From positions 4,117,516 through 4,181,515 of the forward strand of contig NZ_CP022530.1 of NCBI RefSeq assembly GCF_002237535.1: 64,000 nucleotides of DNA. The letters are read 5' to 3'. The position numbers and the translations under genes were made by a program. Each line of letters starts with the position of its first letter. Position 1 is the first letter of the stretch. This DNA is from Bacterioplanes sanyensis. GTDB taxonomy: Bacteria; Pseudomonadota; Gammaproteobacteria; Pseudomonadales; Oceanobacteraceae. This document shows, in pieces, positions 19,474 through 58,718 of this stretch. The notes beneath the pieces are model-generated. The model saw only the letters and a list, made by a program, of their open reading frames with translations, had not been told where the DNA came from and ran no database searches.

Positions 19474-19549
19474 CTCCCTATAGCTCAACTGGATAGAGCC
19501 ACCGCCTCCTAAGCGGTAGATCGGGGTTCGAGTCCCTGTGGGGAGGCCA
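19474..19549 (+). tRNA. tRNA-Arg (anticodon CCT)
   Basis: Manual cloverleaf fold. Acceptor CUCCCUA/UGGGGAG with a U-G pair, U8 A9, D-stem GCUC/GAGC, anticodon stem ACCGC/GCGGU, loop CUCCUAA, T-loop UUCGAGU, encoded CCA end. Confidence 0.8.
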
Positions 19550-23692: not shown

Positions 23693-23878
23693 TTACTTGT
23701 TGTCGCTTTGCTCGTGCTGCTGAATGTCGCGATACAGGCTGTCCGCTTCACTGCTCAATTGAGCATAGCTGCGCATATCGCCGTTACGCTGGGCTTGCAT
23801 CGCTTGCTCCAGCTTGCGCTGGTACTGCTGGCGCAGTTTTTTGGTTGGGTCGGTTTTGAAGAAAGAAAACATGGCCAC
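23693..23878 (-). CDS. Small conserved hypothetical protein (DUF6435/Lacal_2735-like)
   Basis: MFSFFKTDPTKKLRQQYQRKLEQAMQAQRNGDMRSYAQL matches, from memory, a widespread 50-60-aa family. Confidence 0.5.
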   Translation of the reverse strand: MAMFSFFKTDPTKKLRQQYQRKLEQAMQAQRNGDMRSYAQLSSEADSLYRDIQQHEQSDNK

Positions 23879-23950
23879 CTCCTAAGTTATACAGGATTGT
23901 ACAACACTTATACCTAGCGTATTAAGGGGTCTGGCCTGAAGTTTTTTTAT

Positions 23951-24026
23951 GCGGGTACGTCTGTGGGTATGGGTATGGGTGCGGGTACTTATGTGGTCAT
24001 GAGTGCGGATACGTCTGTGGGTATGA
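23951..24026. repeat. Cluster of short G/T-rich direct repeats
   Basis: GCGGGTACGTCTGTGGGTATG at 23951..23971 recurs as GCGGATACGTCTGTGGGTATG at 24006..24026. GGGTATG/GGGTGCG units lie between them. Confidence 0.4.
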
Positions 24027-24106
24027 GAACGGCAAAGTGACGACATCGGCGCTGTAGACGCAGTTTGTTATGGCTGGCCACCACTTAGGTCGCCAGCCAT
24101 GGCATG

Positions 24107-24346
24107 TTACAGGTCGTATTCGGCCTTCAGCTCGTCGACGCGACGGCGCAGCTCTCCGCGCAACTCTTTGTCTGACAAGCGACCGATGATGTTCGACAGA
24201 ACGCGTTTTTCGTTGTCGTCCACCACGCCATCACGCTTGGCGATATCGAGGATCTTCTCCAACTCGTTAACGTCCAGAGTGCCATCGTTGGCAAAGCAGT
24301 TGATGGAATGGAAGGACATTTCCAAGTAATCGCGATTTTCTTTCAT
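24107..24346 (-). CDS. Hypothetical 79-aa protein (TerB/DjlA-N-like helical domain?)
   Basis: Strong RBS TAAGGAGAAAACC before the ATG. The sequence is GTLDVNELEKILDIAKRDGVVDDNEKRVLSNIIGRL. Sits 76 bp downstream of the zinc-ribbon gene on the same strand. Confidence 0.5.
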   Translation of the reverse strand: MKENRDYLEMSFHSINCFANDGTLDVNELEKILDIAKRDGVVDDNEKRVLSNIIGRLSDKELRGELRRRVDELKAEYDL

Positions 24347-24422
24347 GGTTTTCTCCTTAGGATTGATCTAGCTGTTATACAACACTCAATATCGCCGTCA
24401 ATGAAGGCGGCGATTATCCGTA

Positions 24423-24974
24423 TTATTCACACGTACTGTTACTGGCCGGACGAATCGACAAATATTGCAGAATGTCCGCCTTACCCTGCTGCTGGTTTAA
24501 CCACTGGCGAAACTCATCGGCCTTGGCAAACTGCACTTCACCCAAGCGGTTACGGAAGTTTTCTCTGACACTGGCTTCTTGCTCAGTTAAACGAATCAGG
24601 CGCTGCCAGGCGTCGGTAAATATTCTCGGCAACTGCTGATGCATTTCGCACGATTTCAGCAATGACCACTCACCAGCGTCGAGCCAGGCTTCGTCACACG
24701 TCGCGCACAGCTCCAAGCGATTATCCTGATCGTGACCGATGCGATATTTGCTCATTAAGCGGGCGCATTTGGGGCACAGTTTGGCACCTGCAGAGTCTTC
24801 GGCGGAAAACTCATTGTCCTTCTCAATACTGTGCTGCTCGGTGGTTTGCTGCCAATAACGATAATTCAGCAGCGGTAGCAAGCTGCCACCACACTGCAGG
24901 CATCCCGCTGCGACCAGCCCAGTCTCTAGAGTAACCGGCTGTAACTGGCTGCCCTTGCATTGCGGACACTGCAT
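24423..24974 (-). CDS. Double zinc-ribbon (zf-TFIIB-like) domain protein
   Basis: Two CPxC...C..C units (CPQCKGS...CLQCGG; CPKCARLM...CATCDEAWLDAGEW), which resemble Pfam zf-TFIIB-type bacterial zinc ribbons. AGGAGA RBS. The stop is 9 bp after the rhomboid gene. Confidence 0.6.
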   Translation of the reverse strand: MQCPQCKGSQLQPVTLETGLVAAGCLQCGGSLLPLLNYRYWQQTTEQHSIEKDNEFSAEDSAGAKLCPKCARLMSKYRIGHDQDNRLELCATCDEAWLDAGEWSLLKSCEMHQQLPRIFTDAWQRLIRLTEQEASVRENFRNRLGEVQFAKADEFRQWLNQQQGKADILQYLSIRPASNSTCE

Positions 24975-24983
24975 AATCTTCTC

Positions 24984-25556
24984 CTACTCAATTTCTGTTT
25001 CTGGCTTACCACGACTGAGAGAACTTAAAAAAGCAAATAATCCTCCCGCGACGGCACCCGCGATATGGGCTTCAAATGACACCCCAGGGTGATTCGGAAG
25101 CAAGCCATACACCAAGCCGCCGTAAGCAAACACCACCAGCAACGCCACCATGACATTGACAAAACTGCGTGCGAACAACGCCAGTGCTATTTGCCAGGCC
25201 CAAAGCCCAAAAATCCAGCCGCTGGCGCCAATATGAATGGCCGGCCGAGCAAACAGCCAGACCAAGGCACCAGAGACCACAACAATAAACACACTGGCCA
25301 TCAAGTATTGACGCACCGAATGACGCAAACTGATCAAGCTCAGCATCAGCAGACCGGTCAGGTTGTTAAATAAATGCCACCATTCGCTATGAACAAAAGG
25401 CGCCAACACAATGTGAAACCAGGCGCTGGCTTCGCGTGGCTGGATACCAAAGCGATTCAGCGCCCCACCGACCACGGCGTTTACAGCAAACACCGCAATC
25501 AGTATCAGCGCCAATGAACACAGCAGCAGCAAACGGCGCTTAAGCTGCAACATCAT
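24984..25556 (-). CDS. Rhomboid-family intramembrane serine protease
   Basis: Six TM helices. GASGWIFGLW is the GxSG catalytic Ser motif. HIAGAVAGGL carries the catalytic His. HSEWWHLFNN matches the rhomboid loop. ATGA overlap with the stop of the upstream giant gene. Confidence 0.8.
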   Translation of the reverse strand: MMLQLKRRLLLLCSLALILIAVFAVNAVVGGALNRFGIQPREASAWFHIVLAPFVHSEWWHLFNNLTGLLMLSLISLRHSVRQYLMASVFIVVVSGALVWLFARPAIHIGASGWIFGLWAWQIALALFARSFVNVMVALLVVFAYGGLVYGLLPNHPGVSFEAHIAGAVAGGLFAFLSSLSRGKPETEIE

Positions 25557-28500
25557 GGCTCAGCTGAGCCCTTGGCTGCTGTTGAGGTTTTCGCTCTGTC
25601 AGTCTGGCTTTTTTCAGGCTGGCTTTCTTCAGAGTGGCTTTTGTCGATTTGGCGAGTGCTAGCCAAATCGGTTTCTAACACCCGCAATTGCTCGGATATA
25701 TCGCGCATTTTGCCGTGTGTGCGCAGATCGATTTCGAGCTTTTTATCCATGCTGCGCACCAGCGGGAAAATGCTGTTTTCGATGGTTTCTGCCAGTACTG
25801 CCAGCACTTTATCAATACCAGGCACCGGTTCATTCACCACTTTTACCTTCGGCTGGATTTGTTTTACTGCTTCGGCAAATTGATTCAGACCTTTCAGCAT
25901 GGCTTTGGCGACGATCTCATTTTGACCAGCACTGCTCTGACCCAGTTGTTGAGCGCTGCCGGACAGTGCCTGCACGCCTTCGACCAAATCCGACAGTTGC
26001 GCCACCACTTTGGCACCGGTATCAGCACCGTCGCCGCCCATGGCTTTATTGCGTAAAAAGTCCTTTTTAATTTGTTGCCAGCGCTCGGCTTGTTCTGTGG
26101 TCATGTTGCCACGCAGCTCGGCCAGCTTCAGCAGATTGTCTTCAGCACCAGTGGTCAGCAGTTGCGATTCACCCAGGTAATGATCCGCGATCATTTGCAT
26201 CAGTTCGCGATCATTCATAACGGCGGAGATTTTCTCCGTCATTTTATTCATGTTGCGATAACTGCCCTGCAGCTTAAAGGCAGGCTCAGTGCGATATTTA
26301 TCGTCTTGTGCCGCAGAGGCAATGTACTGCTGGTTAATCTTCAGCACGACTTCCTGCACCACCATCATTTTTTGCAACACGGAAGTCATTTCATTGATTT
26401 CCGCGCCACTGTACTGGTGAGACAAATCGGTGGTGGCGACCTCGCGACCTTTGGCCATATCGATTAACTTATACACATCGTCCATTTCGCGCACCGCCAT
26501 CGGTGCCAGAACCGGGTTAGAGGTCAGCGCGTTTTCGATGTAACTCAGCGCAAACTGCTCATCCATGCCACCTAAGATGTCGCCTAGGTTATAAATATCG
26601 GCACGGTTAGCGAGCATGTCTGGAATCTTAAAGGCTTCGCCCGATTCCGTGTACGGGTTACCCGCCATCACGACACAGAACTTGCGCCCGCGCATGTCGT
26701 AGGTTTTGGTTTTGCCTTTCCAAACACCGTCAATACGACGCGTGCCGTCACACAAGGAGATAAATTTCTGCAAAAACTCTGGATCCGTGTGCTGAATATC
26801 ATCCAGATACAGCATCACATTGTTGCCCATCTCTAACCCGAGGTTGAGCTTTTCCAACTCTTTTCTGGAAGTCGCATCCGGCGCTTGCTGCGGATCTAAT
26901 GACGTCACTTCATGACCCAGCGACGGGCAGTTGATCTTCATGAAGATTAAGCCCAACCGGCTGGCAACGTATTCCATTAATGTGGTTTTACCGTAGCCAG
27001 GCGGCGAGATCATCATCAATAAGCCCATCAAATCGGTACGTTTATTATCACCGATGGTACCCATTTGTTTGGCTAGGTTGTCGCCAATCAAAGGCAAATA
27101 TGACTCGTTAATCAGGCGGTTACGCACAAATGAGCTCAAAGGTTTCGGCTTAAATTCGTCCAACCGCAGTGCTTCGCGTTGTTCTGCGATCACCTGTTGG
27201 CGCACAGCCAAATAGCGATGATACGCAGGCACCACCTCAAAGCGGTGATGCTCCATCTTCAGCAAAAAAGCATCCAGGCCAAAGTGCAACGCTTGCTGCT
27301 CAATCAACGCATGATCGCCCATCAAGCCCGCTACCGATAGCTCCAAATCCACTTCGGTAAAACGTCGTTCAAGGCGCTCATTGGCGTTAATTAATGCCAC
27401 CGCCTCTGGAATGTAACGCTGCAAACCGTCCAGTTGTTTGTCTTTTACCAGCGCTTGCAGCCAGGCTGATGTCAGGTTCCAGCGCTCGGCTGGCCAGCCC
27501 ATCATTTTATCCAGCGCCATCTGATAACGGCGCCAGGTTTCGTCGTCCATCGAACGCTTCAGTTCGTCTACTAACTGAGTGGCGTATTTGCTGCCAATAA
27601 ACTCCAACCGTTCACGCCCCATTTCGGCCACCAGATAGTCGGCAGCGCGCCGGATATCCAGCTCGGTGACCTCAATAGGATGTTGCGCCACAAACTCCTG
27701 CAGCGAGACAAACACTTCTTCCACCAGCAGCTCGACTGCTTCGTTGCTGCGAAATACTGAGCCCATTTGCGCCGCAGACTGAGCACGCTCAGGCCAGGTG
27801 GTAAAACACAAGGTCGCGCGATCTTGCTCGGCGCTTTTCTGACTGCGAGTCAGACCTTTAATATTGGACCAAAACACCTGCGCCAAGCCACGACATAACG
27901 GGTCGTAGCGCAACAAATCAGCACCGTCTAATGCCGGAATCAGTACTTTCAGCAGCAAGACGGCATCATGGTCGTGGATGCCTTTTTCGTATCCTTCCTT
28001 GTAGCGCGGGCTAGCAAACTGACGCACCAACTCCGTCAGTTTGTTATCTTCCAGCAGTGCCGTGCGCAATTGCTGCAGCGATAAACCGTCGCTGTGTTTT
28101 TTTGCCGCTTCGAGAATTAAAAATGCGAGGTATTCAGAGCGATAGACAGCCGGAGTCTCTGACTCCAGGTTCATATCCCAATAATCGCGCAGCGCCAACA
28201 GCTCGGCCTGTTCAATGGGCTCGTAATAATCGGTGCCGGTGAGGTGAATATTCAGCATGCCATCACGCGGAATGATGGTCAGATCCAGCTCCTGAGTATT
28301 AACTGAGAACTTATGACGTGGCCCCAGTTTGATGACATTACCGCCATCTTCATAAATATCGCTTTTGTCTCGTAACGAGCGCAGCGCTTGTTCTTTAATG
28401 GCTTTTAACCGGGCCTCGATATCATCGGCTTTCACCGCCGCATCCAGCTGCCGCAGCTGCTCCACCTGCTCGCGAATCTTCATCACCAGTGCATCAGAGG

Positions 28501-30916
28501 CGAAGTAGGTATTCAGCTCATCTTGCTCGGTGAACTTCAGCGAACGCTTTTCAATGCTACTGAGAATACGACTGGCAGCATCAGACACCGATTGCGCTTT
28601 ACGTTGCAGTTCGTCAATCAGCTGTTGTTTGTGATTTTCAAACGATTCATATACTTCCTCGCGTTTATCCATAATGTCAGCGAGGAATTCATCAAATTCA
28701 CTGTATTGGCTTTCCAGCTCTTCCAGCTGTACCAACAGACGCGACAGTTGCTCATCACACTTTTCTGGCGTATTGGCCATGCCCAGTGCATTGGCAATGC
28801 TCTGCGAGAACAGCTTAAACTGAGCTCCGAATTGCGCTATGGCTTCGGCCGAGCCCAATGATTTTTGCTTATGCTTGGTTTTTGCTTTGCTTTGATTGAG
28901 CTGCGCATAAATCTGCGAAATGGCATCAATGATACGCGTGCGTACCGTTGCATCGTCGACTTTGAGCGTGCCCATTAACTCGGACAGCAGATCCAGACCC
29001 GAAGCGGTGGTTTCGATCACTTCAACCAAGGGCTGCAACTCTGCCATCGTGGTGGCTTGTTCAACACTGTGATTAATGTCATCAATTTTCGCCTGATACG
29101 GCTCCAGCGCTTTATCGTCCGCAAGAAACGCCACAGTGCGCTCGCTCAGCGACGCTTCCAGTGTTTTTAACTCATCGTCCAGCTGTTCAATGGCGGCAAC
29201 ATCGATATAACGCAGCTCGCGAATGGTCATCAAATGACCGCGCTGGCGGCGAATGGCACCTAATGCATCGACGTATTCGGTGGTGGTTTCCCAGCTTTCG
29301 GTACGCACGGTTTGCAGCAGTGCTTGTTGCGACTGCTGCGCTTCGCGCATGGCTTCATCGGATTGCTGGCGGATGCTTTGAACTTTTTCAAATTCATCAA
29401 TCACCAATTCAGCCGTACTGCCAATGTCATGCAGCAGCTCGGCAATGGTGCTGGTTTCTGTTTCTGCCAGCCAATAATGATCGTCAAATGCTTTACGCGC
29501 CGCTTTACTCAACTCTTCATATAACCGCGCAGACACACTTTGCTGGCTGATCATACGCACAACGCTGTACAAGTCCGACACACCGCGCACTAACTCTGCG
29601 TTACCGATACGGCCATAAAAGGTCTGACTGGCTGGTGCCCGACTGGCATGCTCATCGCTTTCATACGGGGTTTGCCAGATTTGCATCGGATGAACGCGAG
29701 TCGGTTCATTTTCGGCAGAAAAGATCACCAACCTGCCATTGTCTGCCAAAGCATAACCATGGGCATACACTGGGTTTTGCAGGCTTTTATCAATCAGGTT
29801 GTACGCCAACAAACACAGCTCGCCATTTTCTGGCTGATAGAAGACGTACAGCATGTCTTCACCGTTGGGGGAGCGCACTTTGCGCTTGAAGCGCAAACCG
29901 TCGACGCCGTCGTCAAACTGCTTTAGCTCACCGCTGCTAAGGTAATACCCCCCAGGGAAAATCAGACCATGATCTTCCGGTAGCTGTACGCAGGAATCAC
30001 CAATGGCATCAATGCGATGGACACTTTCATCCAGTGGGTTGTAAATAAAATGGCGTGCTTGCTCTTCGCGGTAAGGAAGGATTTTCAACAAAATCAGCTC
30101 GCCAATGTGGGCATAGCTGATATCTGCGTCATCCAATGACTGGGTTTTATCTTCTACCGGTTCCTGATAAATACCCAAGCCATCTTCGGTGTTGTTTTCT
30201 ACCTTGATGGTCAGATCGCCACCCACGGTTTCAACGAACAGGGTATCTAAAATATTGATATGCGGATGACGACCATTCACTGTATCATCGCGGGTAGTAG
30301 AGGTCCATTCAAAATCAAAGGCGGGGGGTAACTGAATGTCACGCTCTCCGCGATTGTCCAGATACTCCACCGTTCTCCCATCAGCCGATACCGACCAACG
30401 AAAAACACGAATATCTTCCAAACGCTCGCCGATTTGGAAACCGGCCAACAGCTTGCCTTTTTTTACCGTAAGCTCTACCAGCTTAGTATGCTTGTAATAG
30501 CGATACAGCTCTTCAAAATCATTAACAAACCCAGGGTCGGCTAGAAAGGTGCCCTGGGCTGGTACTTCTACCAGCTCAAACTGTCCGTCATTTTCGGTGA
30601 CGTCAAACAGAGCAAAAACATCGCTTACCTGAGTTTCTTTTTTCAGGCCAATAAATACGTTGTAACCAAACAGCAAGTGGCCACCCACTTGCACCATGTC
30701 CCGCGCCACACAGTTATTTTCAGTGCGTACTCGAGTTCTGGCCACGACTTGCATATCTGAGCTGCCAAACTCGGCGGTACGTGCCTCGTTCAACGCGGAA
30801 ATGGCTTGCTCCAGTTGACTGCCTTGATCCTGCAAACGCTTTTTGATGATGTCGTAAGCACCACCTTCAGCAACGGCATTGTCAACGACGTCCGTAGATT
30901 GCTTTTGCTCTACCAT
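25553..30916 (-). CDS. Giant 1787-aa multidomain protein with a single embedded AAA+ ATPase module
   Basis: Uninterrupted ORF. Walker A ISPPGYGKTTL (DNA about 26985..27010). Walker B VMLYLDDIQ. A MoxR/AAA_5-like sensor and arginine region CVVMAGNPYTESGEAFKIPDMLANRADIY. Long coiled-coil-rich flanking regions. No N-terminal GTPase P-loop. Confidence 0.8.
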   Translation of the reverse strand: MVEQKQSTDVVDNAVAEGGAYDIIKKRLQDQGSQLEQAISALNEARTAEFGSSDMQVVARTRVRTENNCVARDMVQVGGHLLFGYNVFIGLKKETQVSDVFALFDVTENDGQFELVEVPAQGTFLADPGFVNDFEELYRYYKHTKLVELTVKKGKLLAGFQIGERLEDIRVFRWSVSADGRTVEYLDNRGERDIQLPPAFDFEWTSTTRDDTVNGRHPHINILDTLFVETVGGDLTIKVENNTEDGLGIYQEPVEDKTQSLDDADISYAHIGELILLKILPYREEQARHFIYNPLDESVHRIDAIGDSCVQLPEDHGLIFPGGYYLSSGELKQFDDGVDGLRFKRKVRSPNGEDMLYVFYQPENGELCLLAYNLIDKSLQNPVYAHGYALADNGRLVIFSAENEPTRVHPMQIWQTPYESDEHASRAPASQTFYGRIGNAELVRGVSDLYSVVRMISQQSVSARLYEELSKAARKAFDDHYWLAETETSTIAELLHDIGSTAELVIDEFEKVQSIRQQSDEAMREAQQSQQALLQTVRTESWETTTEYVDALGAIRRQRGHLMTIRELRYIDVAAIEQLDDELKTLEASLSERTVAFLADDKALEPYQAKIDDINHSVEQATTMAELQPLVEVIETTASGLDLLSELMGTLKVDDATVRTRIIDAISQIYAQLNQSKAKTKHKQKSLGSAEAIAQFGAQFKLFSQSIANALGMANTPEKCDEQLSRLLVQLEELESQYSEFDEFLADIMDKREEVYESFENHKQQLIDELQRKAQSVSDAASRILSSIEKRSLKFTEQDELNTYFASDALVMKIREQVEQLRQLDAAVKADDIEARLKAIKEQALRSLRDKSDIYEDGGNVIKLGPRHKFSVNTQELDLTIIPRDGMLNIHLTGTDYYEPIEQAELLALRDYWDMNLESETPAVYRSEYLAFLILEAAKKHSDGLSLQQLRTALLEDNKLTELVRQFASPRYKEGYEKGIHDHDAVLLLKVLIPALDGADLLRYDPLCRGLAQVFWSNIKGLTRSQKSAEQDRATLCFTTWPERAQSAAQMGSVFRSNEAVELLVEEVFVSLQEFVAQHPIEVTELDIRRAADYLVAEMGRERLEFIGSKYATQLVDELKRSMDDETWRRYQMALDKMMGWPAERWNLTSAWLQALVKDKQLDGLQRYIPEAVALINANERLERRFTEVDLELSVAGLMGDHALIEQQALHFGLDAFLLKMEHHRFEVVPAYHRYLAVRQQVIAEQREALRLDEFKPKPLSSFVRNRLINESYLPLIGDNLAKQMGTIGDNKRTDLMGLLMMISPPGYGKTTLMEYVASRLGLIFMKINCPSLGHEVTSLDPQQAPDATSRKELEKLNLGLEMGNNVMLYLDDIQHTDPEFLQKFISLCDGTRRIDGVWKGKTKTYDMRGRKFCVVMAGNPYTESGEAFKIPDMLANRADIYNLGDILGGMDEQFALSYIENALTSNPVLAPMAVREMDDVYKLIDMAKGREVATTDLSHQYSGAEINEMTSVLQKMMVVQEVVLKINQQYIASAAQDDKYRTEPAFKLQGSYRNMNKMTEKISAVMNDRELMQMIADHYLGESQLLTTGAEDNLLKLAELRGNMTTEQAERWQQIKKDFLRNKAMGGDGADTGAKVVAQLSDLVEGVQALSGSAQQLGQSSAGQNEIVAKAMLKGLNQFAEAVKQIQPKVKVVNEPVPGIDKVLAVLAETIENSIFPLVRSMDKKLEIDLRTHGKMRDISEQLRVLETDLASTRQIDKSHSEESQPEKSQTDRAKTSTAAKGSAEP

Positions 30917-30986
30917 TCCTTAATCCTTTTTTCCAACTGCTCAGATTTGACCATCGATATGCGGGACAGTAACTTTCACTGCAATC

Positions 30987-31021
30987 GCAGCACCGGGCCT
31001 TTGAAAGCTCTCCGGTGCTGC
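30987..31021 (-). promoter_or_regulatory. Perfect 10-bp stem-loop in the flotillin-to-giant-gene intergenic region
   Basis: GCAGCACCGG...(15 nt)...CCGGTGCTGC, with no U-tract. Could be an attenuator or RNA-processing element modulating downstream expression. Confidence 0.35.
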
Positions 31022-31030
31022 ACAAGCAGA

Positions 31031-32971
31031 TTACTGCTGGGTTTCGTTATTACTACTGGATGATTCCATCACTTTGCTCAGCAAGGCTTGAATGGTATTG
31101 CTCTTGCCAGCAAAACCATCGATGGCTTTACCAATAGACAGCGACTTAGCAAAGTTATCGAAGAAATGATCTTCGCCACCAACGATATCAATTTTGGCTT
31201 TCTGCAAGGCCACCGCCAGTACTTCAGCATTTTCACGGGCAATGTCTTTGCCGGCTTCAATCGAAGCCATGGCTTCTTTCAGTGCAGTTTCCAGACCCAT
31301 GCGATACTCTTCGTGCGAGCGTGCTTCAGCGCTCATGTTATTCATGGCATCAAACTTCTCGACCAAACCATCGGCTTCGGCTTTGTATTGCTCGCGGGTG
31401 ACAGCGGCGTTGGCCATACCAATTTCACGTGCGGCGGTAGCTTCTGAGTTACCTTTGGCAGCAATCACATCCGCTTCTGCTTTACCCGTGCCCAACAAGG
31501 CATCGGCTTCCGCATCGCCTTTGGCTTTGATCACATTGGCTTCGGCCAGGCCTTCTTTTTCGAATGCATCAGCCTTAGCCGATTGCACTTTGGCTTCCGC
31601 CAAACCACGCGCAGCTTGCTCTGCCTGGGTACCTTCAGCCAGTTTTTTCTTAGCATCGGCTTCTTTGGCAGACGCTTCCAGCTCTGCTTGCGCTATAGTC
31701 GTCAACTCCACGGCACGGTGCTTAGCCGAAAGCTCTTTGGCTTCTGCTTCTTTGACTTGCTTAACTTTTTCTTCTTCCGCCAGCGCCTCAGCAGCCAGTA
31801 CTTGCGTTTGTTTAGCACGGTCCGCTTCAGAGACTTCGCGCACTTCTTTAATGCGCTCCTCTTCCACCGCGACGGTTTTATCAACCGCTACACGCTCGCG
31901 CACCACGTTGGCGATTTCTTTGCGCTCGACCTCAATGGCCTTTTCCGCTTCGATTTTCTGGATTTCGACTTCGCGCTCACGCGACACCACTTCCAGATCC
32001 CGTGCACGAGTTACTTTTTCAACTTCGATGGCCACAGCGCGCTGGCGATTTTGCTCGGCTACTTCAATTTCACGCTGCTGGTTTTCACGCTGCACCGCCA
32101 AGTCTTTTTCTACTTGGATGGTGGTTGCCTCTGCCTTGCGACGCTCTTCTTCCTGAACTTTTTTGGTTTCGGCTTCTTCGCGTGCGCGTATGGTAGCGAC
32201 TTCGCGTTCTTGCTTGGCTTCAGCGTCCGATTGCTGACGCTCCAGCTCTAACATGGCTTCGACGGTTTCTACGTTCTTTTTCTTGATCGCCAGTTCTTCG
32301 TCACGTTCCAGGTTGTTGGTGATTACATTCTGGTTGGCGGTCAATTGGGTAATCTTTTTAATACCCTCAGCATCAAGAATGTTGCTGGAGTCTAATGACG
32401 ACTTTGGTGTTTGCTCCAGGTAATCAATAGCGACGTCTTCCAACACATAGCCGTTTAAGTCTTCACCGATCACCTCAATGATTTTGTCACGAAAATCCTG
32501 ACGGTTTTCAAACAGGGCCACAAACTCAATTTGCTTACCCACTGTCTTCAACGCTTCTGAGAACTTGGCGTTAAATAATTCATTGACCGCGGCTTTATCG
32601 GATGCACGGCTAGCACCGATGGATTTGGCAACCTTGAGCACATCTTCAGCGGTTTCATTCACTCGCAGATAGAAAGCGACGGTGATGTCTGCGCGCATAT
32701 TGTCAGCACAGATCAGACCGTCTTTACCTCGTCTGTCTACCTCCAAGGTAATCAGCGAGATTTTCATCAGCTCTTTTTTATAGATGATCGGGTAGACCAA
32801 GGCGCCAGTGAAATGCACCTTTGGCTGAGAGGTCATATCATTGACAATCAGCGCCGTGCCCTGCTCCACCTTATAATAAAAGGCTTTAAACAGCGCAGCC
32901 ATACCCATCAAGATGACGAATACGATACCAACGCCCGTCAGAATTGGCATTAATACAGATAAATCTGCCAT
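31031..32971 (-). CDS. Flotillin-family SPFH/band-7 protein (YqiK/FloT-like)
   Basis: N-terminal TM helix, then an SPFH domain (ALVYPIIYKKELMKISLITLEVDRRGKDGLICADNMRADITVAFYLRVN), then a very long EA-rich coiled coil. Same architecture as E. coli YqiK. Confidence 0.85.
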   Translation of the reverse strand: MADLSVLMPILTGVGIVFVILMGMAALFKAFYYKVEQGTALIVNDMTSQPKVHFTGALVYPIIYKKELMKISLITLEVDRRGKDGLICADNMRADITVAFYLRVNETAEDVLKVAKSIGASRASDKAAVNELFNAKFSEALKTVGKQIEFVALFENRQDFRDKIIEVIGEDLNGYVLEDVAIDYLEQTPKSSLDSSNILDAEGIKKITQLTANQNVITNNLERDEELAIKKKNVETVEAMLELERQQSDAEAKQEREVATIRAREEAETKKVQEEERRKAEATTIQVEKDLAVQRENQQREIEVAEQNRQRAVAIEVEKVTRARDLEVVSREREVEIQKIEAEKAIEVERKEIANVVRERVAVDKTVAVEEERIKEVREVSEADRAKQTQVLAAEALAEEEKVKQVKEAEAKELSAKHRAVELTTIAQAELEASAKEADAKKKLAEGTQAEQAARGLAEAKVQSAKADAFEKEGLAEANVIKAKGDAEADALLGTGKAEADVIAAKGNSEATAAREIGMANAAVTREQYKAEADGLVEKFDAMNNMSAEARSHEEYRMGLETALKEAMASIEAGKDIARENAEVLAVALQKAKIDIVGGEDHFFDNFAKSLSIGKAIDGFAGKSNTIQALLSKVMESSSSNNETQQ

Positions 32972-33002
32972 GTTCAGTTACTCCACTTCCTGTTTTATAT
33001 AG

Positions 33003-33698
33003 TTAGTCGATTTGAGTGAACTCTTGTTCGGATATCACTCGATAAGCGTTTTCTTCTGTCAGATATTCCAATAGAACGACCCGATCTCCTTTTTTAAAGC
33101 GCTCCTCTGCGCCCGCTCGAACCTTTAAAATCAGCCCTGCGCCACCATCGGCCAACATGGCTTCTCCAAACGCTTGGTCAACACGCGAGGTACGTACAAT
33201 CGCGGTTTGCCCTAATACGTGTTTGCCGGCTTGCTGCTGAGTTTTATGGAAAAATGGTCTTAGTGGTTTAATCACTTGCGCCGTGATCATCACTGCAACA
33301 TATAGAGAGGCAAGAAAGATAGGCACGCCCGCCAGCCACTGCAATAAACCGTGTGGTATTAAGGCAAAGCTGAAGTGCACCAGGTAATAACAAATCAACC
33401 AACCAAACAATGTAATCAGCGAGACGATAATGGTCACTGGGACACCCACCAGACCAAATCGCATTAATAAACCCGCTAATACGTTGGGGCCACCATGCTC
33501 ATGTGCGCTGGATAGCTCTAAATCACCATCCGCTTCCGGTAAATCCACATCCAGCACGTCGATATCTACCAGCCCCAGCACCGCCACCAACCAATACAGC
33601 ACGATCAATGCGAGCATAAAGGTGAAAATGGCCGTGGGAAACGACGCAATATTCTGATAAAAAGGGTTCATTCCCTCAGTGAAAAATACTGCAAACAT
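33003..33698 (-). CDS. NfeD/YqiJ-like membrane protein (OB-fold C-terminus)
   Basis: Multi-TM N-terminus. C-terminal GQTAIVRTSRVDQAFGEAMLADGGAGLILKVRAGAEERFKKGDRVVLLEY is an NfeD-type OB-fold. Sits immediately upstream of the flotillin, as in yqiJ-yqiK. Confidence 0.6.
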   Translation of the reverse strand: MFAVFFTEGMNPFYQNIASFPTAIFTFMLALIVLYWLVAVLGLVDIDVLDVDLPEADGDLELSSAHEHGGPNVLAGLLMRFGLVGVPVTIIVSLITLFGWLICYYLVHFSFALIPHGLLQWLAGVPIFLASLYVAVMITAQVIKPLRPFFHKTQQQAGKHVLGQTAIVRTSRVDQAFGEAMLADGGAGLILKVRAGAEERFKKGDRVVLLEYLTEENAYRVISEQEFTQID

Positions 33699-33818
33699 CC
33701 CTTATTCCTTGTTTATTGTGCGAGCACATTGATACAAGCTGGCGGGCCCATATGGGCACCGCCTTAGTTGCTTAATCCGTGATCTGAATAACGGCCCCCC
33801 CCGCAATGCGATAGAGTG

Positions 33819-34523
33819 TTATTCAGCTGCTCCGCCGCTTTTTCTAGTTTTAATCCGCGCCAGTATGTCTTCTGAACGGTTACCCTGCACCCGAATACCG
33901 GCTTGCTCTAATTTATTCTGCAAAGACAGCTCAGGGGCTTCCTCTGCCAGTTCGCTGGCGGCTGCCAGCTCAGCATCACGCAAGGCTTGTTTTTCCTTGA
34001 TGCGTTGCAGGGAATCCATCGCCGTGCGTAATTTTGCATGTGATCCACTGTGACGCTGGGCCACAGCGGCTTGCGCGCGGTGCACGCTTTCACTCGCCTT
34101 GACGGTATCCAGCTGTTGTTTTAACCGTTGAATGTTACGCTGGGTTTGCACAATGGCGGTTTTCATTTGCGTAACACTGTCGGCATAGCTGTTGGCCGCC
34201 GCCTGCTCTTGGCTGTGCTGCTGCTCCAGCTCGGCAATTTTCTCTGCCACTTCCAGCGCTAAGGCTTCATCACCTTGTTCCAGCGCTTGCAGGGCGTAGC
34301 CTTCATGCGTCTCAATGTGTTGACGCAGCTGCTCGCTTTTATCCTGCGATACTTTCTGTCGCGCCATCATTTCCGCCAAACTGTTTTTGGATTGATCCAG
34401 TTCGGCGGCCGCTTCGCGCACTTCCTGATCCAAAATGCGCAGCGCTTGGCTGTCGACGATGGCTTCGCCTGCTTCGTTTACACCTCCGCGCAGCGCGGTC
34501 ATCATCTTCGCCCAGATGTTCAT
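33819..34523 (-). CDS. PspA/IM30 (Vipp1) family protein, ESCRT-III superfamily (YjfJ-like)
   Basis: N-terminus MNIWAKMMTALRGGVNEAGEAIVDSQALRILDQEVREAAAELDQSK is the PspA helix alpha0/alpha1 pattern. Coiled coil throughout. Confidence 0.8.
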   Translation of the reverse strand: MNIWAKMMTALRGGVNEAGEAIVDSQALRILDQEVREAAAELDQSKNSLAEMMARQKVSQDKSEQLRQHIETHEGYALQALEQGDEALALEVAEKIAELEQQHSQEQAAANSYADSVTQMKTAIVQTQRNIQRLKQQLDTVKASESVHRAQAAVAQRHSGSHAKLRTAMDSLQRIKEKQALRDAELAAASELAEEAPELSLQNKLEQAGIRVQGNRSEDILARIKTRKSGGAAE

Positions 34524-34537
34524 ACAAACTCCTCGCC

Positions 34538-35164
34538 TTAGCCGGCGGCAGCGGTGACGGTTAAAAACTCGTTGTATGCTTCCGTCGCCTGAATCACGTT
34601 GCTGGTAAGCACCTCAATTTCGAACACGACATTACTGAGGATTGAGCTTGCACTCAAGGCACCAAACATATGGTAATAATCCTCTCCGTCAATGTTATCC
34701 AGGCTGATGGTGGATAGCGGCAGATACTTATGGGTGCGTAGCACCGCGTCGTTAAAGCGTGCTTTATCGGTGACGTCACTGGCAGGCCATAGCAGCGACT
34801 CGACAATAATCTGATCGCCGGAAACGGTCAAAAACAGCGGTAAATCACCGTATTCGTGCATGGTGACATGCAAGGCTGGCTCAGCGCCATCGATCATTTC
34901 AATGGCTGCGGTTCCTTGAGCAAACCAATCAGACTGTTGCAGTGCCTGAAACAGGCTTTGGGTTGTCCAGCGCTCTACTTGATGCGTCATGTCCATTTCT
35001 CCTGGTGGCTCAAACATATCGCCACGGCGGCGCAGCTGTTTTTCCACAGCCGCCAAGTGCTTGGCGTTCTCGGGAAGAATCCAGACCTCTTTCTTCACCA
35101 GTCCCTGCTGGCGCAGGCGCCGACGATACTCTCGCTGATAATGTGCCGAAGACTTTGCTTTCAT
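34538..35164 (-). CDS. DUF2170 (YjfI-like) protein with a basic 50-aa N-terminal extension
   Basis: C-terminal about 150 aa (LPLFLTVSGDQIIVESLLWP...YLPLSTISL...GALSASS) resembles E. coli YjfI, which also precedes the PspA-like yjfJ. The N-terminus MKAKSSAHYQREYRRRLRQQGLVKK is Arg/Lys-rich. Confidence 0.55.
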   Translation of the reverse strand: MKAKSSAHYQREYRRRLRQQGLVKKEVWILPENAKHLAAVEKQLRRRGDMFEPPGEMDMTHQVERWTTQSLFQALQQSDWFAQGTAAIEMIDGAEPALHVTMHEYGDLPLFLTVSGDQIIVESLLWPASDVTDKARFNDAVLRTHKYLPLSTISLDNIDGEDYYHMFGALSASSILSNVVFEIEVLTSNVIQATEAYNEFLTVTAAAG

Positions 35165-35180
35165 GGTGCCAAATTACCGC

Positions 35181-35236
35181 ATTACATGTAACAAAGCAAA
35201 CATCACATGTAATACAAAAACCATTACATGTAATAC
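35181..35236. promoter_or_regulatory. Triple palindromic operator ATTACATGTAAT at 21-bp phasing
   Basis: TTACATGTAA at 35182..35191, TCACATGTAA at 35203..35212 and TTACATGTAA at 35224..35233. Extended consensus cATTACATGTAATAC. The first copy is 18 bp upstream of the DUF2170 ATG. Confidence 0.5.
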
Positions 35237-35306: not shown

Positions 35307-37238
35307 TCAGTCAGATGCGGTGTGGCGATAGGGTAAGGTAATGCGGAATGCCACACCGTGTCCGAGTTCACTGTCGCAGCGAATCTGGCCATGAAGATCT
35401 TGCACCACCAGGTTGTAGATCATGTTCAAGCCCAAACCTGTGTTGCCAGCATGGCGCCGGGTGGTAAAGAAGGGATTAAAGATCAGCGGCAAATCATCCG
35501 CGGCGATGCCTTTGCCATTGTCGCGATAACAAATGGATACATGATCTGTCGCCGCCTCAACTTCAATATCGATGCGCCCTTGCATTCGCTTATCAAAACC
35601 GTGATGCAAGGAGTTCATTACCAGGTTGGTAAAAATTTGCCACAGCACTCCGGGATAGCTGTGTACAACAATGCCTTCATCCCCAACGATATGCCACTCC
35701 AGTGCATACTCCTTGATCGCCGGGCGCAGGCTGGCAACGATGTCATTCAAATACTCCACCAGCGCGATATCCGCCAGATGATCCTGGTTCTGATTGGCCG
35801 CAGTACGTTTAAAGCGCCCGACCAACTCCACCGCCCGGCTGAGATTCACTTGCAGAATCTCAGCCACTTCGGCGCTTTGGGTTAAAAAGTCGGCCAGGTC
35901 TGTGCGCGTCATCTCACCGCGCTCAAACTTTTGCTGCAAAGCGGGAACGGTTTCCTGCAACACAGAATTGGCCGTGACCGACACACCGATGGGGGTGTTT
36001 ATTTCATGCGACACACCCGCAACAATATTACCCAGCGCCGCCATTTTTTCGCTTTCGATTAATTGTTGCTGAGTACACTTGAGTTCGTCATAGGCCTGGC
36101 GCAATTGCTCTTGTTGTTGTTTGTCGTTATCCACCACGTCTTTGTAGTGATTAAACCAATGTACCAGCTGTTTGATTTCGCGAATGGAGGTTTGCGCTTC
36201 AAGGCTGTTCAGACATTGCTCGTTATTTCTGGCTATCTCGGTAATGGTTTCAATGGGGTGCACCACTTTTTTTGCCAGGTAATACACCGCCGCCACCATC
36301 ACCAGCAGCGCAAAGGCAAAACACACAATGGTCAGTTGACCAATGGTCGTTGCTCGGCTTTGCATGGCATCAATGGACACCACGCCGGCCAACGACCATC
36401 CCATGGCCGGAATTTTATTAATAAATACACGCACCGAGCGCCCATCCAGCATGGTATCGATGGGACCGACGGTACCCTGGTGAGCGTCTGCCAATGCAAA
36501 GGGGGTTTTAAGTCGGGATTTTTGCGGGTGATAAACGATGCGCTGCTCGCCGTCGTACAGTAGATGGTAAATCAAATTGGAGTCTCGCTCATGCACTCGC
36601 GAATACAATGTCTCGATATTGTATTTGAGCACCATATAAGCCTGAGTGACATAGCGCCCGCTGACGTCGTCGAACTCCATCAGCTGCGCGATGGCTGGTA
36701 CCACCAGGCCATTGCGGGAGTCGACATGTGTGTTGCTTTCAATGCCCGGCCAACACAGGCCGCGCTGACTGGCTGTACAGGCCGTCAGCCACTGCTCAAA
36801 CAGCTCCATGTCATAACGATCACCGGCGGATAAATCACCGACGCTGAACACCGCACCATTAGCAATCACATCAATCGAGATCAGCCCTTGCAAGCTGATC
36901 ACCGAGCTTAATTTATCCTCCAGATTGGCGCGCAAACGCAGTCTTTCAATAGCGTCCAAGCCATCTGCACGGTATGCGCTATCGACCATGGATTGAATCG
37001 AGGGCGATTCACGTAAATCTCGCGCCAGCCGCCTGGCATCCAACGCAAAGCGCTCCATATTGCTCACTTCCTGGCGAAAGATGGCGGCCGTTAATTCGTT
37101 GGCCTGGCTGTTTAACCCTTCAACTGACAGCCGGTAGGAATACACACCCAGCACCGTAAGAGGCACCAAGGTGCTGATGAACATGTAGACGATGAGTCGG
37201 TTCTGCAGTGATTGAAACCAGGACAAGCGCGCTAACAT
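35307..37238 (-). CDS. Sensor histidine kinase with a large periplasmic sensing domain
   Basis: TM helix, periplasmic domain, TM helix. H-box AALGNIVAGVSHEINTPIG. HATPase_c motifs (GLGLNMIYNLV). No receiver domain. Confidence 0.8.
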   Translation of the reverse strand: MLARLSWFQSLQNRLIVYMFISTLVPLTVLGVYSYRLSVEGLNSQANELTAAIFRQEVSNMERFALDARRLARDLRESPSIQSMVDSAYRADGLDAIERLRLRANLEDKLSSVISLQGLISIDVIANGAVFSVGDLSAGDRYDMELFEQWLTACTASQRGLCWPGIESNTHVDSRNGLVVPAIAQLMEFDDVSGRYVTQAYMVLKYNIETLYSRVHERDSNLIYHLLYDGEQRIVYHPQKSRLKTPFALADAHQGTVGPIDTMLDGRSVRVFINKIPAMGWSLAGVVSIDAMQSRATTIGQLTIVCFAFALLVMVAAVYYLAKKVVHPIETITEIARNNEQCLNSLEAQTSIREIKQLVHWFNHYKDVVDNDKQQQEQLRQAYDELKCTQQQLIESEKMAALGNIVAGVSHEINTPIGVSVTANSVLQETVPALQQKFERGEMTRTDLADFLTQSAEVAEILQVNLSRAVELVGRFKRTAANQNQDHLADIALVEYLNDIVASLRPAIKEYALEWHIVGDEGIVVHSYPGVLWQIFTNLVMNSLHHGFDKRMQGRIDIEVEAATDHVSICYRDNGKGIAADDLPLIFNPFFTTRRHAGNTGLGLNMIYNLVVQDLHGQIRCDSELGHGVAFRITLPYRHTASD

Positions 37239-37250
37239 GCTAATGCCTAC

Positions 37251-38201
37251 TCAATCCGTGACCACCAGTACGTCCACCAGTACGGTCGGATCCACCGATG
37301 TCGATTCCAATAAATCCAATGCCGTCATCACGCCACGATAACCTTGCTGGTCCGCTTGCTGGTCAACGGTAACCTTGAGCCAGCCACTTTTTACCGCGCT
37401 GGCGGCATCGGGAATATTGTCGTAACCGCCGATTAGCCAGTCACTCAGCTCGTTTTCTTGTGCGTATAAAATCGCGCCCAGCGCCATCATGTCGTTGGCG
37501 GCAAAAACTAGGTTGATGTCCGGGTACTTGGCGTGCATTTGCTTGGTTAATGCGTAGGCTTGCTCCAGCTTCCAGTGCGCCGGCTCAGCCGCCACCAACT
37601 CAATATTGCCCGCCTGCTCAAAGGCAGCCAGCGCGCCATTGCGGCGCTGAATGGCATTTTTTGCACTGCGTGGCCCTTCAATGACCAGTGCCTTGGCCTC
37701 CCCGTCCACCAGCGAGGCTAGGTATTTGGCTGCCAAGAAGCCACCGCGTTCGTTGTCCACCGACACAAATGGAATCGGCGGCAAACCGGCTGCCGCTGCG
37801 GCCATCGGGTCCACCTGATTGTCGATGTTTACGACTTTTACCCCTTGCTGATGCGCGCGCAGCAGCACGGGAATGATTTCAACCGAGTTGGCCGGCGCGA
37901 TAACCAATGCATCGATACCGCTGGCCAGATGCTCGTCGATGATTTCAATTTGCTGCTCGACCAGGGTCTCGTTGGTACCGGAGCGCACAATCAACTGCGC
38001 GGCGCGGATTTCTGCGGCTTGGCGCGCGCCCTTTTCCATCGCTGCATAAAACGGATTTACCAGCGACTTCATCACTAGCAAGACTTTAGCTCGCTCATCC
38101 ACCGTCGGCGAGACAACCTCGGCCTCATCCTGTTGATCACACCCCAGCAAACCCAACGACAGCCACAATACTGCGCAGCAAGCAAAGCGAGCCATGATCA
38201 T
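37251..38201 (-). CDS. Periplasmic solute-binding protein (sugar-binding PBP type I) partnered with the sensor kinase
   Basis: Lipoprotein-like signal MIMARFACCAVLWLSLGLLGC. Peripla_BP-like fold (KVLLVMKSLVNPFYAAMEKGARQAA...GIDALVIAP...GVKVVNIDN). Sits 12 bp upstream of the kinase, an arrangement like TorT/TorS or LuxP/LuxQ. Confidence 0.75.
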   Translation of the reverse strand: MIMARFACCAVLWLSLGLLGCDQQDEAEVVSPTVDERAKVLLVMKSLVNPFYAAMEKGARQAAEIRAAQLIVRSGTNETLVEQQIEIIDEHLASGIDALVIAPANSVEIIPVLLRAHQQGVKVVNIDNQVDPMAAAAAGLPPIPFVSVDNERGGFLAAKYLASLVDGEAKALVIEGPRSAKNAIQRRNGALAAFEQAGNIELVAAEPAHWKLEQAYALTKQMHAKYPDINLVFAANDMMALGAILYAQENELSDWLIGGYDNIPDAASAVKSGWLKVTVDQQADQQGYRGVMTALDLLESTSVDPTVLVDVLVVTD

Positions 38202-46407: not shown

Positions 46408-46607
46408 GCTGGCCTCGCTTGCTCGAAGTTCTTAGACGGATACAGCCAGTATTGACGTCATTTTTCGTGCTGTCCGTAACAGTCAGTAACGGTACTGAGG
46501 GAATAGAGCGATCTGAGAGTTGGGTCACATGGCAACTGTGACATCGAGTCACAGTTGCCAGCCGCACTGGCAAGCGGCGACGACTGACCTACGCTAACAA
46601 CACGAGC

Positions 46608-48158
46608 TTGTTGTCAGGAACAGCCATGTACAGTGTTCGCTTCCGTTTGGCTGCTCAGCTGGTGTTTGTGGTCACCTTGCTGTTGGCTGCGTTCGGTTAT
46701 TACAGTTATCAACAGGCCGAAGCTAACTTAATGGCAGAGTTCGAACGCCAAATTGCAGCCTCGGCCAAACGCACTCAACTGAGCTTGCCAGGTCCGATCT
46801 GGAACTTTAACGAGCAGATGACGCAGTCGGTGATTCAGTCTGAGTTGGCCTATGAGGGCATTATTGCCATCGAGGTCATCAATACCGATGGTGAGCGCAC
46901 ACTGCTGTTCACCCTCAGCGATAACCCCGAAGAACCGATCACCGCGTTGGAAGAGCCACCCGCCCTCGACGATGTGCGCGAGTTTGCCCTGCAATATGAA
47001 GATTACGGCGAAATGAACGACGTTGGCATCGCCAATTACTACGTCGACGCGGCCTTTATTCAGCCCCAGCTGACGCGGCTAATGTGGCGCCAGGTGGCCT
47101 TAGTGGTGGTGTTGGATCTGGTCATTGGCGCCATGTTGTTGATCTTGATGGGGCGCACCTTGATGGGCCCATTGCAGCGCATCACTACTGCCGTGGACGC
47201 TGTTGCCAGCGGCGATGGCGATCTGACGCGACGGTTGCCCACCCCCAGAGCAGTCGAACTGCAACCGCTGAGCCTCGGCATCAACACCTTTATCGAATCG
47301 GTGCAGGACATCGTTCAACAAACCACTCACGACGCCAAAGCGCTGGAAGCGCAAGCCGGTAGCGCGCGCCAGCAAGCAGCCGACACCTCAGGCTACAGCC
47401 AGCAACAGCAAACCTTGCTGACTAACATGCGTTCGGCGAGTGAGCATTTACGCGAGTCCATCGTCGCCATCGATCAGCAAGCGCAATCTGCGCTGGATAA
47501 AATCTCCACCACAGAGCACGCCGCCGATCAGGGGGTGCAAATGATCGCGCAGCTGGTGCGCCGAGTGGATGAGCTGGTTGAGCAAATTGCTGCCGTTAGC
47601 AACAGCGCTAATCAGCTGATTGCTGAGGGCCAGCAAATCAGCGACATTCTTGGTGTTATTCGCTCCATAGCCGAGCAAACCAACTTACTGGCACTCAATG
47701 CCGCCATCGAAGCCGCCCGCGCTGGCGAAGCCGGGCGCGGCTTTGCCGTAGTGGCGGATGAAGTACGCAACCTGTCTGCTCGCACTGAGCAATCAACCGA
47801 CGAAATTGATCAACACATCGGCACCATGCGCCAGGTCAGCAGCCAGTTGGAAGCAGGCCTACATAACTTAAGTGATGCCACCCAAAGCACCGTCAGCCTG
47901 TGCGACGACGCCAACACCTCCATTGCCGCCATCAGCACCGCCAGCTCTGACACCGCCGAATGCAACCGCCAGATCAGCCACACCACACAGGAACAAACCT
48001 CAGCGGTCAGCGATATGAGTACCACCATTGAAGAGGTTTCCGACAGCGCCTCTTCCATGCACCAATTGGCTGTCGACTCGTCAGATAACGCAGAGCAAGT
48101 CAGTCAGCTGGCCGCTTCCGTACTGCGTCAGCTGCAACGCTTCAAAGTCGATTCTTAG
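46608..48158 (+). CDS. Methyl-accepting chemotaxis protein
   Basis: Two TM helices with a periplasmic domain. HAMP domain. Highly conserved signalling domain [37 protein letters not shown]. Confidence 0.85.
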
Positions 48159-48169
48159 GAGAAACACCA

Positions 48170-48891: not shown

Positions 48892-48945
48892 CCGCTCATC
48901 AATACACTGGGATTGCTGCCTGCAGAATCCTGCGTTTCTCAAGCG

Positions 48946-48971
48946 ACGAGCCCACGAAACTGGGCTCGTTT
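48946..48971 (+). terminator. Rho-independent terminator after the SBP gene
   Basis: CGAGCCCA-cgaaac-TGGGCTCG followed by TTTT. Confidence 0.55.
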
Positions 48972-49165
48972 TGCATCCAGCATCCACGATGCAAACAGAT
49001 ACGACTCACTTTCCGCTTCATTCATTGGCGTTAGACGCAAGCCGCCCAAGCGATCACTATGAACGGCCGTCAGGTTAAGTTGATGCCATCTCAAGTGCCG
49101 CCACCGGGCTTTTGCGTTAGAATGACCGCCCGTAAAATTTGCCAGAACGACATGAGGAAGCCCTG

Positions 49166-50428
<1,263 letters not shown>

Positions 50429-58708: not shown

Positions 58709-58718
58709 CGGGAGCGTC

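Follow-up and report, generated by a model that had tools for sequence, protein, structure and literature searches.

A Bacterioplanes sanyensis gene cluster that is probably orthologous to the Pseudomonas aeruginosa bac operon, with a conserved BacA N-terminal domain and a candidate leaderless promoter

In a 64-kb stretch of the Bacterioplanes sanyensis genome (contig NZ_CP022530.1; hereafter the window, meaning the whole of the DNA analyzed), we studied a cluster of eight minus-strand open reading frames (ORFs) at 24107-35164. The cluster is most probably the orthologue of the bac operon (bacABCDE) of Pseudomonas aeruginosa, in which genes for a rhomboid protein, a zinc-ribbon protein and a small protein of 79 amino acids (aa) replace the PLD-type bacF. 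The proteins of the window were searched against the profiles of Pfam, NCBIfam and PADLOC, and profiles built from families of homologues were compared with hhalign. The features of the cluster are the following:

35171-35233, minus strand: promoter-operator region with three palindromes TTACATGTAA, a -35-like and a -10-like element
34538-35164, minus strand: bacA (208 aa), a basic N-terminal domain of ~48 aa, a variable linker and a DUF2170/CesT-like domain
33819-34523, minus strand: bacB (234 aa), PspA/IM30 family, YjfJ type
33003-33698, minus strand: bacC (231 aa), YqiJ/short-NfeD-like membrane protein
31031-32971, minus strand: bacD (646 aa), YqiK-type flotillin with an N-terminal transmembrane (TM) helix, a divergent SPFH region and a long coiled coil
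25553-30916, minus strand: bacE (1787 aa), with DUF3686, DUF7902, a helical middle part, an AAA+ module and a helical C-terminus
24984-25556, minus strand: intramembrane serine protease of the rhomboid family (190 aa) whose start overlaps the bacE stop
24423-24974, minus strand: double zinc-ribbon protein (183 aa), its C-terminal part helical and conserved
24107-24346, minus strand: small acidic protein of 79 aa in which a DGxxDxxE-type repeat occurs twice
24070-24100, minus strand: stem-loop with a 9-bp stem ATGGCTGGC/GCCAGCCAT (-28.3 kcal/mol, z -2.7) and without a U-tract

All eight ORFs were recovered at these coordinates. From bacA to the 79-aa gene they are separated by 14, 120, 31, 114, -4, 9 and 76 nt, the negative value being an ATGA overlap of bacE and the rhomboid gene. 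This bears out the array of seven to eight co-directional genes, with an ATGA junction and short gaps (9-14 bp), that had been described in an initial annotation of the sequence.

Comparison by BLASTP with the Pseudomonas paraeruginosa proteins gave 55, 53, 44, 66, and 58% identity for BacA to BacE, respectively, over nearly the full length of each (205 aa for BacA), and the bacA product matched the NCBIfam model NF050185 ‘biofilm formation regulator BacA’ with 324 bits vs. a cut-off of 300. The bac cluster was first described as PA3729-PA3732, around the PspA-like PA3731, with phenotypes in biofilm formation, swarming, rhamnolipids, and virulence and with PA3731 up under osmotic shock (Macé 2008, PMC2587700). 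Wallart 2024 (PMC10948618) showed co-transcription by reverse-transcription polymerase chain reaction, extended the cluster to bacABCDEF, found BacB-F raised 6-13-fold in a bacA mutant, presented a CesT-like structure of BacA and referred to a strong BacA-BacB interaction (their unpublished data). Co-induction of PA3728-PA3732 by phage infection has been reported as well. A class of operons combining CesT/Tir-PspA, TM-band-7-flotillin, YqiJ/YuaF and a novel AAA+ protein was delineated by Ravi et al. 2024 (PMC11237479), who also list shortened operons (flotillin-YqiJ-AAA+) and a PLD in some cases, link the class to yjfI/yjfJ and yqiJ/yqiK and point out that pspF and pspBC are absent. Given these reports, the initial annotation was wrong in taking this combination of genes for one not yet described. 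It also noted that two Escherichia coli loci are fused here and extended with further genes; the fused array with its AAA+ gene is published, and the rhomboid, zinc-ribbon, and 79-aa genes are not mentioned in the open-access papers on bac-type systems. In E. coli, yjfI-yjfJ and yqiJ-yqiK are two separate loci, and a gene and profile survey detected no pspF or pspBC genes in or beside the cluster.

The neighborhood of the giant gene bacE was compared across 80 loci, obtained from an alignment scan with the giant protein at one genome per species; these are the best-scoring loci and not a random sample. All their ORFs, with starts taken from longest-ORF calls, were queried in iterated hidden Markov model searches with the window proteins. 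The loci span Cellvibrionales, Pseudomonas and relatives, Xanthomonadales, Enterobacterales/Orbales, Betaproteobacteria, a Zetaproteobacterium, and Longimicrobium. Full flanks were available for 67 of the 80, and for these we counted the genes that belong to the same co-directional run as the giant gene. An NfeD-like gene and a flotillin gene were each present in 62/67, BacA in 44/67, PspA in 45/67, rhomboid in 29/67, a PLD/HKD protein in 24/67, the 79-aa protein in 23/67, and the zinc-ribbon protein in 16/67. Co-occurrence of the giant gene with flotillin, PspA, and rhomboid genes, which the initial annotation had left to be checked, is therefore found. The histidine kinase and the sugar-binding protein encoded upstream of the cluster in the window served as controls and recur in 9/80 and 3/80 loci. 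Genes A-B directly precede C-D-E in 44/67 loci from several orders, and at the bacE-rhomboid junction stop and start share 4 nt in 15/27. In Pseudomonas species other than P. (para)aeruginosa, the 79-aa gene separates bacD from bacE, and rhomboid and PLD genes come after bacE; the Pseudomonas locus belongs to conserved core synteny beside recJ and lasB. The order of the cluster thus recurs in dozens of genomes and is not due to chance: the NfeD-flotillin-giant core is near-universal, and BacA-PspA lies ahead of it in approximately two thirds of the loci.

These data bear on whether the genes could lie together by chance or form a mosaic of three units (A-B, C-D-E, and rhomboid-zinc ribbon-79-aa) without joint function. 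Such a mosaic would agree with the occurrence of C-D-E alone in about a third of the loci, with an accessory set that varies among close relatives and with hairpins in the two long gaps. The bacB-bacC gap (33699-33818, minus strand) contains a stable hairpin without a U-tract (z -2.5), and the bacD-bacE gap (30917-31030, minus strand) another, likewise without a U-tract (z -2.2), with an 11-bp GC-rich stem; these may be attenuators or mRNA stabilizers that set expression ratios. Yet the A-B pair keeps its place directly ahead of C-D-E in most loci, and the P. aeruginosa genes are co-transcribed, derepressed in a bacA mutant and induced jointly by phage. Moreover, the 79-aa gene retains its linkage while shifting position, and the rhomboid/bacE overlap persists in 15 loci. 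On these observations a mosaic of unrelated units is unlikely, and we regard juxtaposition without joint function as quite improbable.

The C-terminal part of BacA is of a known family. The protein matches DUF2170 (1.6e-53, Pfam) and shares 34% identity with E. coli YjfI (7e-25), the YjfI-like part being its C-terminal domain, and PDB entry 8q8o, a P. aeruginosa DUF2170 chain, matches BacA at 4e-41 over residues 64-202 only. The preceding N-terminal domain (N-domain) comprises the first ~48 residues and is conserved in ~50 loci of all lineages, with the consensus KSSAHYQREYRRRLREQGLVKKEVWILPENAKxLAxxEKxLR, before a variable linker follows. BacA is 208 aa long here and 206 aa in the P. paraeruginosa ORF (L037 5695-6315, in our numbering of loci); the published annotation and crystal chain have 146 aa (16 kDa). 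As the P. paraeruginosa ORF also carries the conserved N-domain, the published BacA would begin at an internal Met, and both the 146-aa protein and the crystal chain 8q8o appear to be devoid of the domain. Matches of the N-domain to the NCBIfam model UrfF ‘plasmid repression protein F’ were obtained for 17/19 sequences (best E 3.8e-6) and to IncL/M RepC for 7/19. Stand-alone proteins of 46-82 aa carry it too, and the metagenomic proteins P0295, P0298, P0301, and P0304 (46-67 aa) show the N-domain motif only (xYRxRLRxxGLVxKEVWIxPE...). Because such small proteins consist solely of the motif, we consider the N-domain an independent module, putatively one that binds DNA. Sequence and profile searches of the PDB with the N-domain returned nothing useful, and the open-access literature on UrfF held nothing usable.

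Upstream of bacA, three perfect palindromes TTACATGTAA are placed at 35224-35233, 35203-35212, and 35182-35191, at a spacing of 21 bp, and the 64-kb window contains no further matches to this sequence. A -35-like TTGCTT (35194-35199) and a -10-like TAATTT (35171-35176) are separated by a 17-nt spacer; the -10-like element ends 6 nt ahead of the bacA ATG, and a Shine-Dalgarno sequence is absent. Across the loci, the conserved promoter holds two or three palindromes. The pattern T[TC]ACATGT[GA]A gave 90 matches in 1.82 Mb of loci, 88 of them at bacA promoters, as compared to ~7 matches in a shuffled-sequence control. The palindrome was found neither in the 28 loci without bacA nor in the 2 loci whose BacA is without the N-domain; among the loci examined, palindromes occur only where the N-domain occurs. 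Alignment of 43 loci anchored on the proximal palindrome revealed TTGA at -10 to -7 and TA...T at +13 to +18, that is TTGAnn-N17-TAnnnT with the palindrome within the spacer, and an ATG located 6-7 nt past the -10 element. A Shine-Dalgarno-like motif precedes 3/51 bacA starts vs. 57-81% for bacB-E. Taken together, 43-51 loci share the palindromes, the TTGA/TAnnnT positions, the ATG distance, and a bacA start without Shine-Dalgarno sequence.

The simplest reading of this arrangement points to a leaderless promoter of sigma-70 type that would be repressed by BacA via its N-domain. We base it on the co-occurrence of N-domain and palindromes, and it agrees with the derepression that loss of bacA causes in P. 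aeruginosa. The N-domain, the operators, and the leaderless promoter appear to be new relative to published work. In four Xanthomonadales loci (L063, L064, L067, and L074) we observed a single proximal site, or a site altered to TTTCATGTAA, along with a variant N-domain (STLHVRNYRERMR / SSTEYVREFRERMR), which may reflect co-variation of operator and protein.

A different view of the promoter comes from P. aeruginosa, for which a sigma-54 site upstream of bacA has been proposed; BacA would then act solely as a chaperone-type post-transcriptional regulator. In the window, TGGCAC-N5-AAGC lies over the bacA ATG, and in P. paraeruginosa a GG-N10-GC occurs at L037 5819-5832, within the region coding for the N-domain. 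We tried the TGGCAC overlapping the ATG as a -24 element and rejected it, since its positions are not conserved across loci. Nor is a gene for an enhancer-binding protein linked to the cluster. The published site lies upstream of the internal Met, where it was sought because the annotation omits the N-domain, and it is the -35/-10 elements of sigma-70 type and the operators that are conserved instead. We therefore hold a sigma-54 promoter to be unlikely and retain repression by BacA at a leaderless promoter as the preferred reading.

Profile searches confirmed the remaining families that the initial annotation had assigned by eye, some of them directly and others through family profiles. BacB matches PspA_IM30 at 2.3e-43 over practically its full length (residues 2-228 vs. 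profile positions 1-218 of 220) and shares 36% identity with E. coli YjfJ (8e-36); no significant match to E. coli PspA was obtained with BLASTP. PspA is reported to adopt an ESCRT-III fold, to polymerize, and to remodel membranes (10.1101/2020.09.23.309765), and by family BacB would be a polymer former of the ESCRT-III superfamily. For BacC, the direct Pfam match was borderline (YqiJ_N, 23.6 bits vs. a cut-off of 23, barely at threshold). The profile of its family aligned to E. coli YqiJ over residues 68-217 with a probability of 90.6% and an E-value of 1.3e-6, so that the assignment as YqiJ/NfeD-like, with an N-terminal membrane domain of YqiJ type and an OB-like domain at the C-terminus, is weak but consistent. 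BacD gave no match to Pfam even at E<=10, and among its homologues only 1/23 matched Band_7 and 2/23 Flot. Nevertheless, the profile of the 23 homologues aligned with E. coli YqiK residues 25-439, SPFH region included, at a probability of 99.9% (E 2.3e-33). As this alignment is strong, we assign BacD as a divergent flotillin of YqiK type. The NfeD-like and flotillin assignments of the initial annotation thus stand at the level of families, and not by direct Pfam matches. The two proteins are found in 72/80 (BacC) and 76/80 (BacD) loci, and their P. aeruginosa orthologues have been termed short NfeD and PaFlo3, respectively.

The giant protein BacE contains DUF3686 (35-481, 1.4e-206), DUF7902 (602-686), and an AAA+ module at ~1295-1480, for which Pfam AAA and AAA_5 matches cover residues 1300-1423. 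Of these, PF00004 (AAA, 1.3e-7) spans 40 residues around Walker A, and AAA_5 (6.7e-6) spans 124. Walker A (GYGKT), Walker B (LYLDD), and sensor-1 (AGN) are invariant in 12 homologues. With hhalign, the ATPase part aligned to FtsH, of the classical clade, over 31 columns around Walker A and to RavA over 109 columns at 4% probability. The similarity over a full-length ATPase domain that would place BacE in the classical AAA clade (Vps4, FtsH, katanin) was not found, and a NPYTESGEAFKIPDMLANRAD segment, judged by eye, resembles the MoxR/AAA_5 signature. An MIT domain was not detected in BacE. Searches of the PDB by sequence and profile with BacC, BacD, and BacE yielded nothing useful, an exact-sequence look-up of BacE returned no record and the open-access literature on DUF3686 nothing usable.

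In the initial annotation, the cluster was taken for a candidate undescribed system whose giant AAA+ protein might be a Vps4-like motor for the disassembly of PspA. What recommends this idea is the ESCRT-III fold reported for PspA (in the source cited above), the tight linkage of the giant gene to PspA and flotillin genes and the question, left open by Ravi et al. 2024 (PMC11237479), of how assembly is controlled in PspA homologues that have no AAA+ partner. Its first half is contradicted by the three papers on the bac operon and its class. As to the second, PF00004 covers only 40 residues, FtsH only 31 columns, and the linkage of BacE to NfeD-flotillin (62/67) is tighter than that to PspA (45/67), which makes flotillin at least as likely a client. 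We consider the proposal improbable in this form. Its general outline, a PspA/ESCRT-III-type protein, an NfeD-flotillin scaffold, and a giant AAA+ ATPase at the membrane, is upheld by our data.

Rhomboid, zinc-ribbon, and 79-aa genes are recurrent, optional, and shuffled accessories of the core. The rhomboid protein matches Pfam Rhomboid (1.4e-17), and its GxSG (GASG), TM6 His, and TM2 H..N reach >=95% conservation across 36 sequences, which suggests that it is probably active. The zinc-ribbon protein matches Zn_ribbon_TFIIB (1.4e-7) in two stretches, with both Cys pairs conserved. The 79-aa protein has 24 clear homologues, encoded at three different positions within the operon according to lineage. 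Hahella has the gene behind bacB and Pseudomonas has it between bacD and bacE; in Cellvibrionales and the window it comes after either bacE or the zinc-ribbon gene. Its ORF was independently called as a gene in a relative, and the locus of a close relative is reduced to A-B-C-D-E-79aa. Membership in TerB or the EF-hand proteins was considered and dismissed, both being below threshold in profile searches (TerB at 0.006 and 0.018). In P. paraeruginosa the gene after bacE encodes a PLDc_2 protein (1e-29), by which we identify bacF as the PLD/HKD gene; tblastn with 25 PLD homologues gave no match in the window. Some loci contain other genes in addition. In L011, L036, and L044 (~15.4-16.9 kb) a gene for an MscS-like mechanosensitive channel is inserted between the 79-aa and zinc-ribbon genes, and in L033, L038, and L061 a PHA_gran_rgn gene follows the giant gene. 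The accessory set (rhomboid, PLD, zinc ribbon, and 79-aa) is thus wider than described, a modest addition to the published picture.

The PLD/HKD gene in 24/67 loci, the induction by phage and the database name ‘DNA repair ATPase’ might suggest anti-phage defense or DNA repair as the role of the cluster. That name derives only from the title of Pfam DUF3686, the partners of BacE are membrane proteins and the Pseudomonas locus near recJ and lasB is core synteny, not an island. In addition, PADLOC reported no match to a defense model, apart from weak coiled-coil hits of BacB to JetC/LmuB. A function of this kind is hardly credible.

The stem-loop at 24070-24100 lies directly 3' of the last stop codon, and the unit probably ends there. 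A promoter scan of the window revealed no sigma-70-like sites of note within the cluster, and the gene 3' of it has a promoter-like site and a Shine-Dalgarno sequence of its own. Just beyond the operon, at 23949-24022 and 23693-23925 (minus strand), we noticed two direct copies of CCCACAGACGTAYCCGCA with ACCCAT runs. After them come a site of sigma-70 type (TTAATA-18-TACAAT) and an ORF of 61 aa (MFSFFKTDPTKKLRQQYQRKLEQAMQ...) with a strong Shine-Dalgarno sequence. On the other side, directly upstream of the cluster, 35307-38201 (minus strand) holds two co-directional genes, one for a histidine kinase of 643 aa and one for a periplasmic sugar-binding protein of 316 aa; we rejected them as members of the system because they rarely recur beside the giant gene. 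Elsewhere in the window, the sole Rfam or ARAGORN match is a tRNA-Arg (anticodon CCT) at 19474-19549 (plus strand), and the G+C content climbs to 0.55-0.60 over 44000-62000 and is 0.47 in the last 2 kb (62000-64000).

From these results we propose how the system could work. BacA dimers would bind the TTACATGTAA palindromes through the N-domain and repress the leaderless operon; repression is suggested by the position of the palindromes, which lie on both sides of the -35 element and take up the sigma-70-type spacer. The CesT-like domain of BacA would bind the PspA-like BacB, the polymerizing effector, and repression would change once BacB is drawn to a stressed membrane. BacC and BacD may form a membrane-anchored NfeD-flotillin scaffold that places BacB at the damaged membrane, by analogy with Bacillus subtilis, in which the SPFH protein YdjI recruits PspA to the membrane, helped by YdjG (two zinc ribbons) and YdjH. 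BacE might then spend ATP to assemble, remodel, or dismantle polymers of BacB or the scaffold, and the rhomboid protease would trim a membrane component. We are doubtful that the whole scheme, i.e., BacA as a two-part switch (UrfF-like N-domain on TTACATGTAA, CesT-like readout of free BacB) with BacE as PspA/flotillin remodeler and a reset by the rhomboid, is correct in every part, and put it forward as a tentative model.

Several points weigh against it. That BacA binds DNA, where transcription starts, and how the proteins contact one another are all inferred, and two papers, Macé 2008 and Wallart 2024, propose a sigma-54 site upstream of bacA in P. aeruginosa. C-D-E stand without A-B in about a third of the loci, and the B-C and D-E hairpins could serve as partial terminators. 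Deletion of PaFlo3 in P. aeruginosa had only marginal phenotypes. No clade was assigned to the BacE ATPase by hhalign against E. coli RavA, FtsH, or PspF. Finally, AlphaFold2 models were poor, owing to low alignment diversity: for BacD (30 sequences, all >=80% identical) the mean pLDDT (predicted local distance difference test score) was 57, with residues 31-196, the SPFH region, at <50, and for BacE 1190-1787 (9 sequences) it was 49.

The bac operon is a published envelope-stress system that affects biofilm formation and virulence of P. aeruginosa. Should the BacA switch prove true, it would overturn the sigma-54 model and the truncated BacA annotation, and BacE would be the missing ATP-driven remodeler of bacterial ESCRT-III (PspA) and/or flotillin assemblies. 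The N-domain, the corrected bacA start, the leaderless promoter, and the accessory set would redirect work on bac.

Among known systems, the ESCRT-III/Vps4 pair has in common with the cluster an ESCRT-III-fold polymer protein encoded beside an AAA+ ATPase, although BacE, with 1787 aa and a DUF3686 N-terminal domain, cannot be placed with confidence in the classical Vps4 clade. The canonical Psp system shares the PspA/IM30 effector and, as we infer, the logic of partner switching between effector and transcription regulator; PspF, PspB, and PspC are absent here, and the regulator, instead of an activator at a sigma-54 promoter, is BacA, putatively a repressor at a promoter of sigma-70 type. E. 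coli yjfI-yjfJ resembles BacA/BacB, but YjfI has 133 aa and is without the N-domain, and yjfIJ lies inside a polyamine-linked operon. The likeness of yqiJ-yqiK to BacC/BacD is one of profiles; it is a separate locus, with no giant AAA+ gene beside yqiK in K-12. In B. subtilis, pspA-ydjGHI (samGHI) combines PspA with an SPFH protein, a double zinc ribbon and a membrane partner and has a biofilm phenotype, yet it has no CesT-like BacA, giant AAA+ protein, or rhomboid, YdjH being a TPM-domain protein unlike YqiJ and YdjI a soluble SPFH protein. The class of Ravi et al. has the exact domain set of the window, and its abbreviated versions and optional PLD are reproduced in our 80 loci, whereas the main text of that paper is without the rhomboid, the 79-aa protein, the BacA N-domain, and the operators. 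The P. aeruginosa bac operon (PA3732-PA3727 / PA14_16140-16200) has the five core genes in the same order, at 44-66% identity, with the same palindromes and promoter layout; its sixth gene encodes a PLD/HKD protein, in place of which the window carries the rhomboid, zinc-ribbon, and 79-aa genes.

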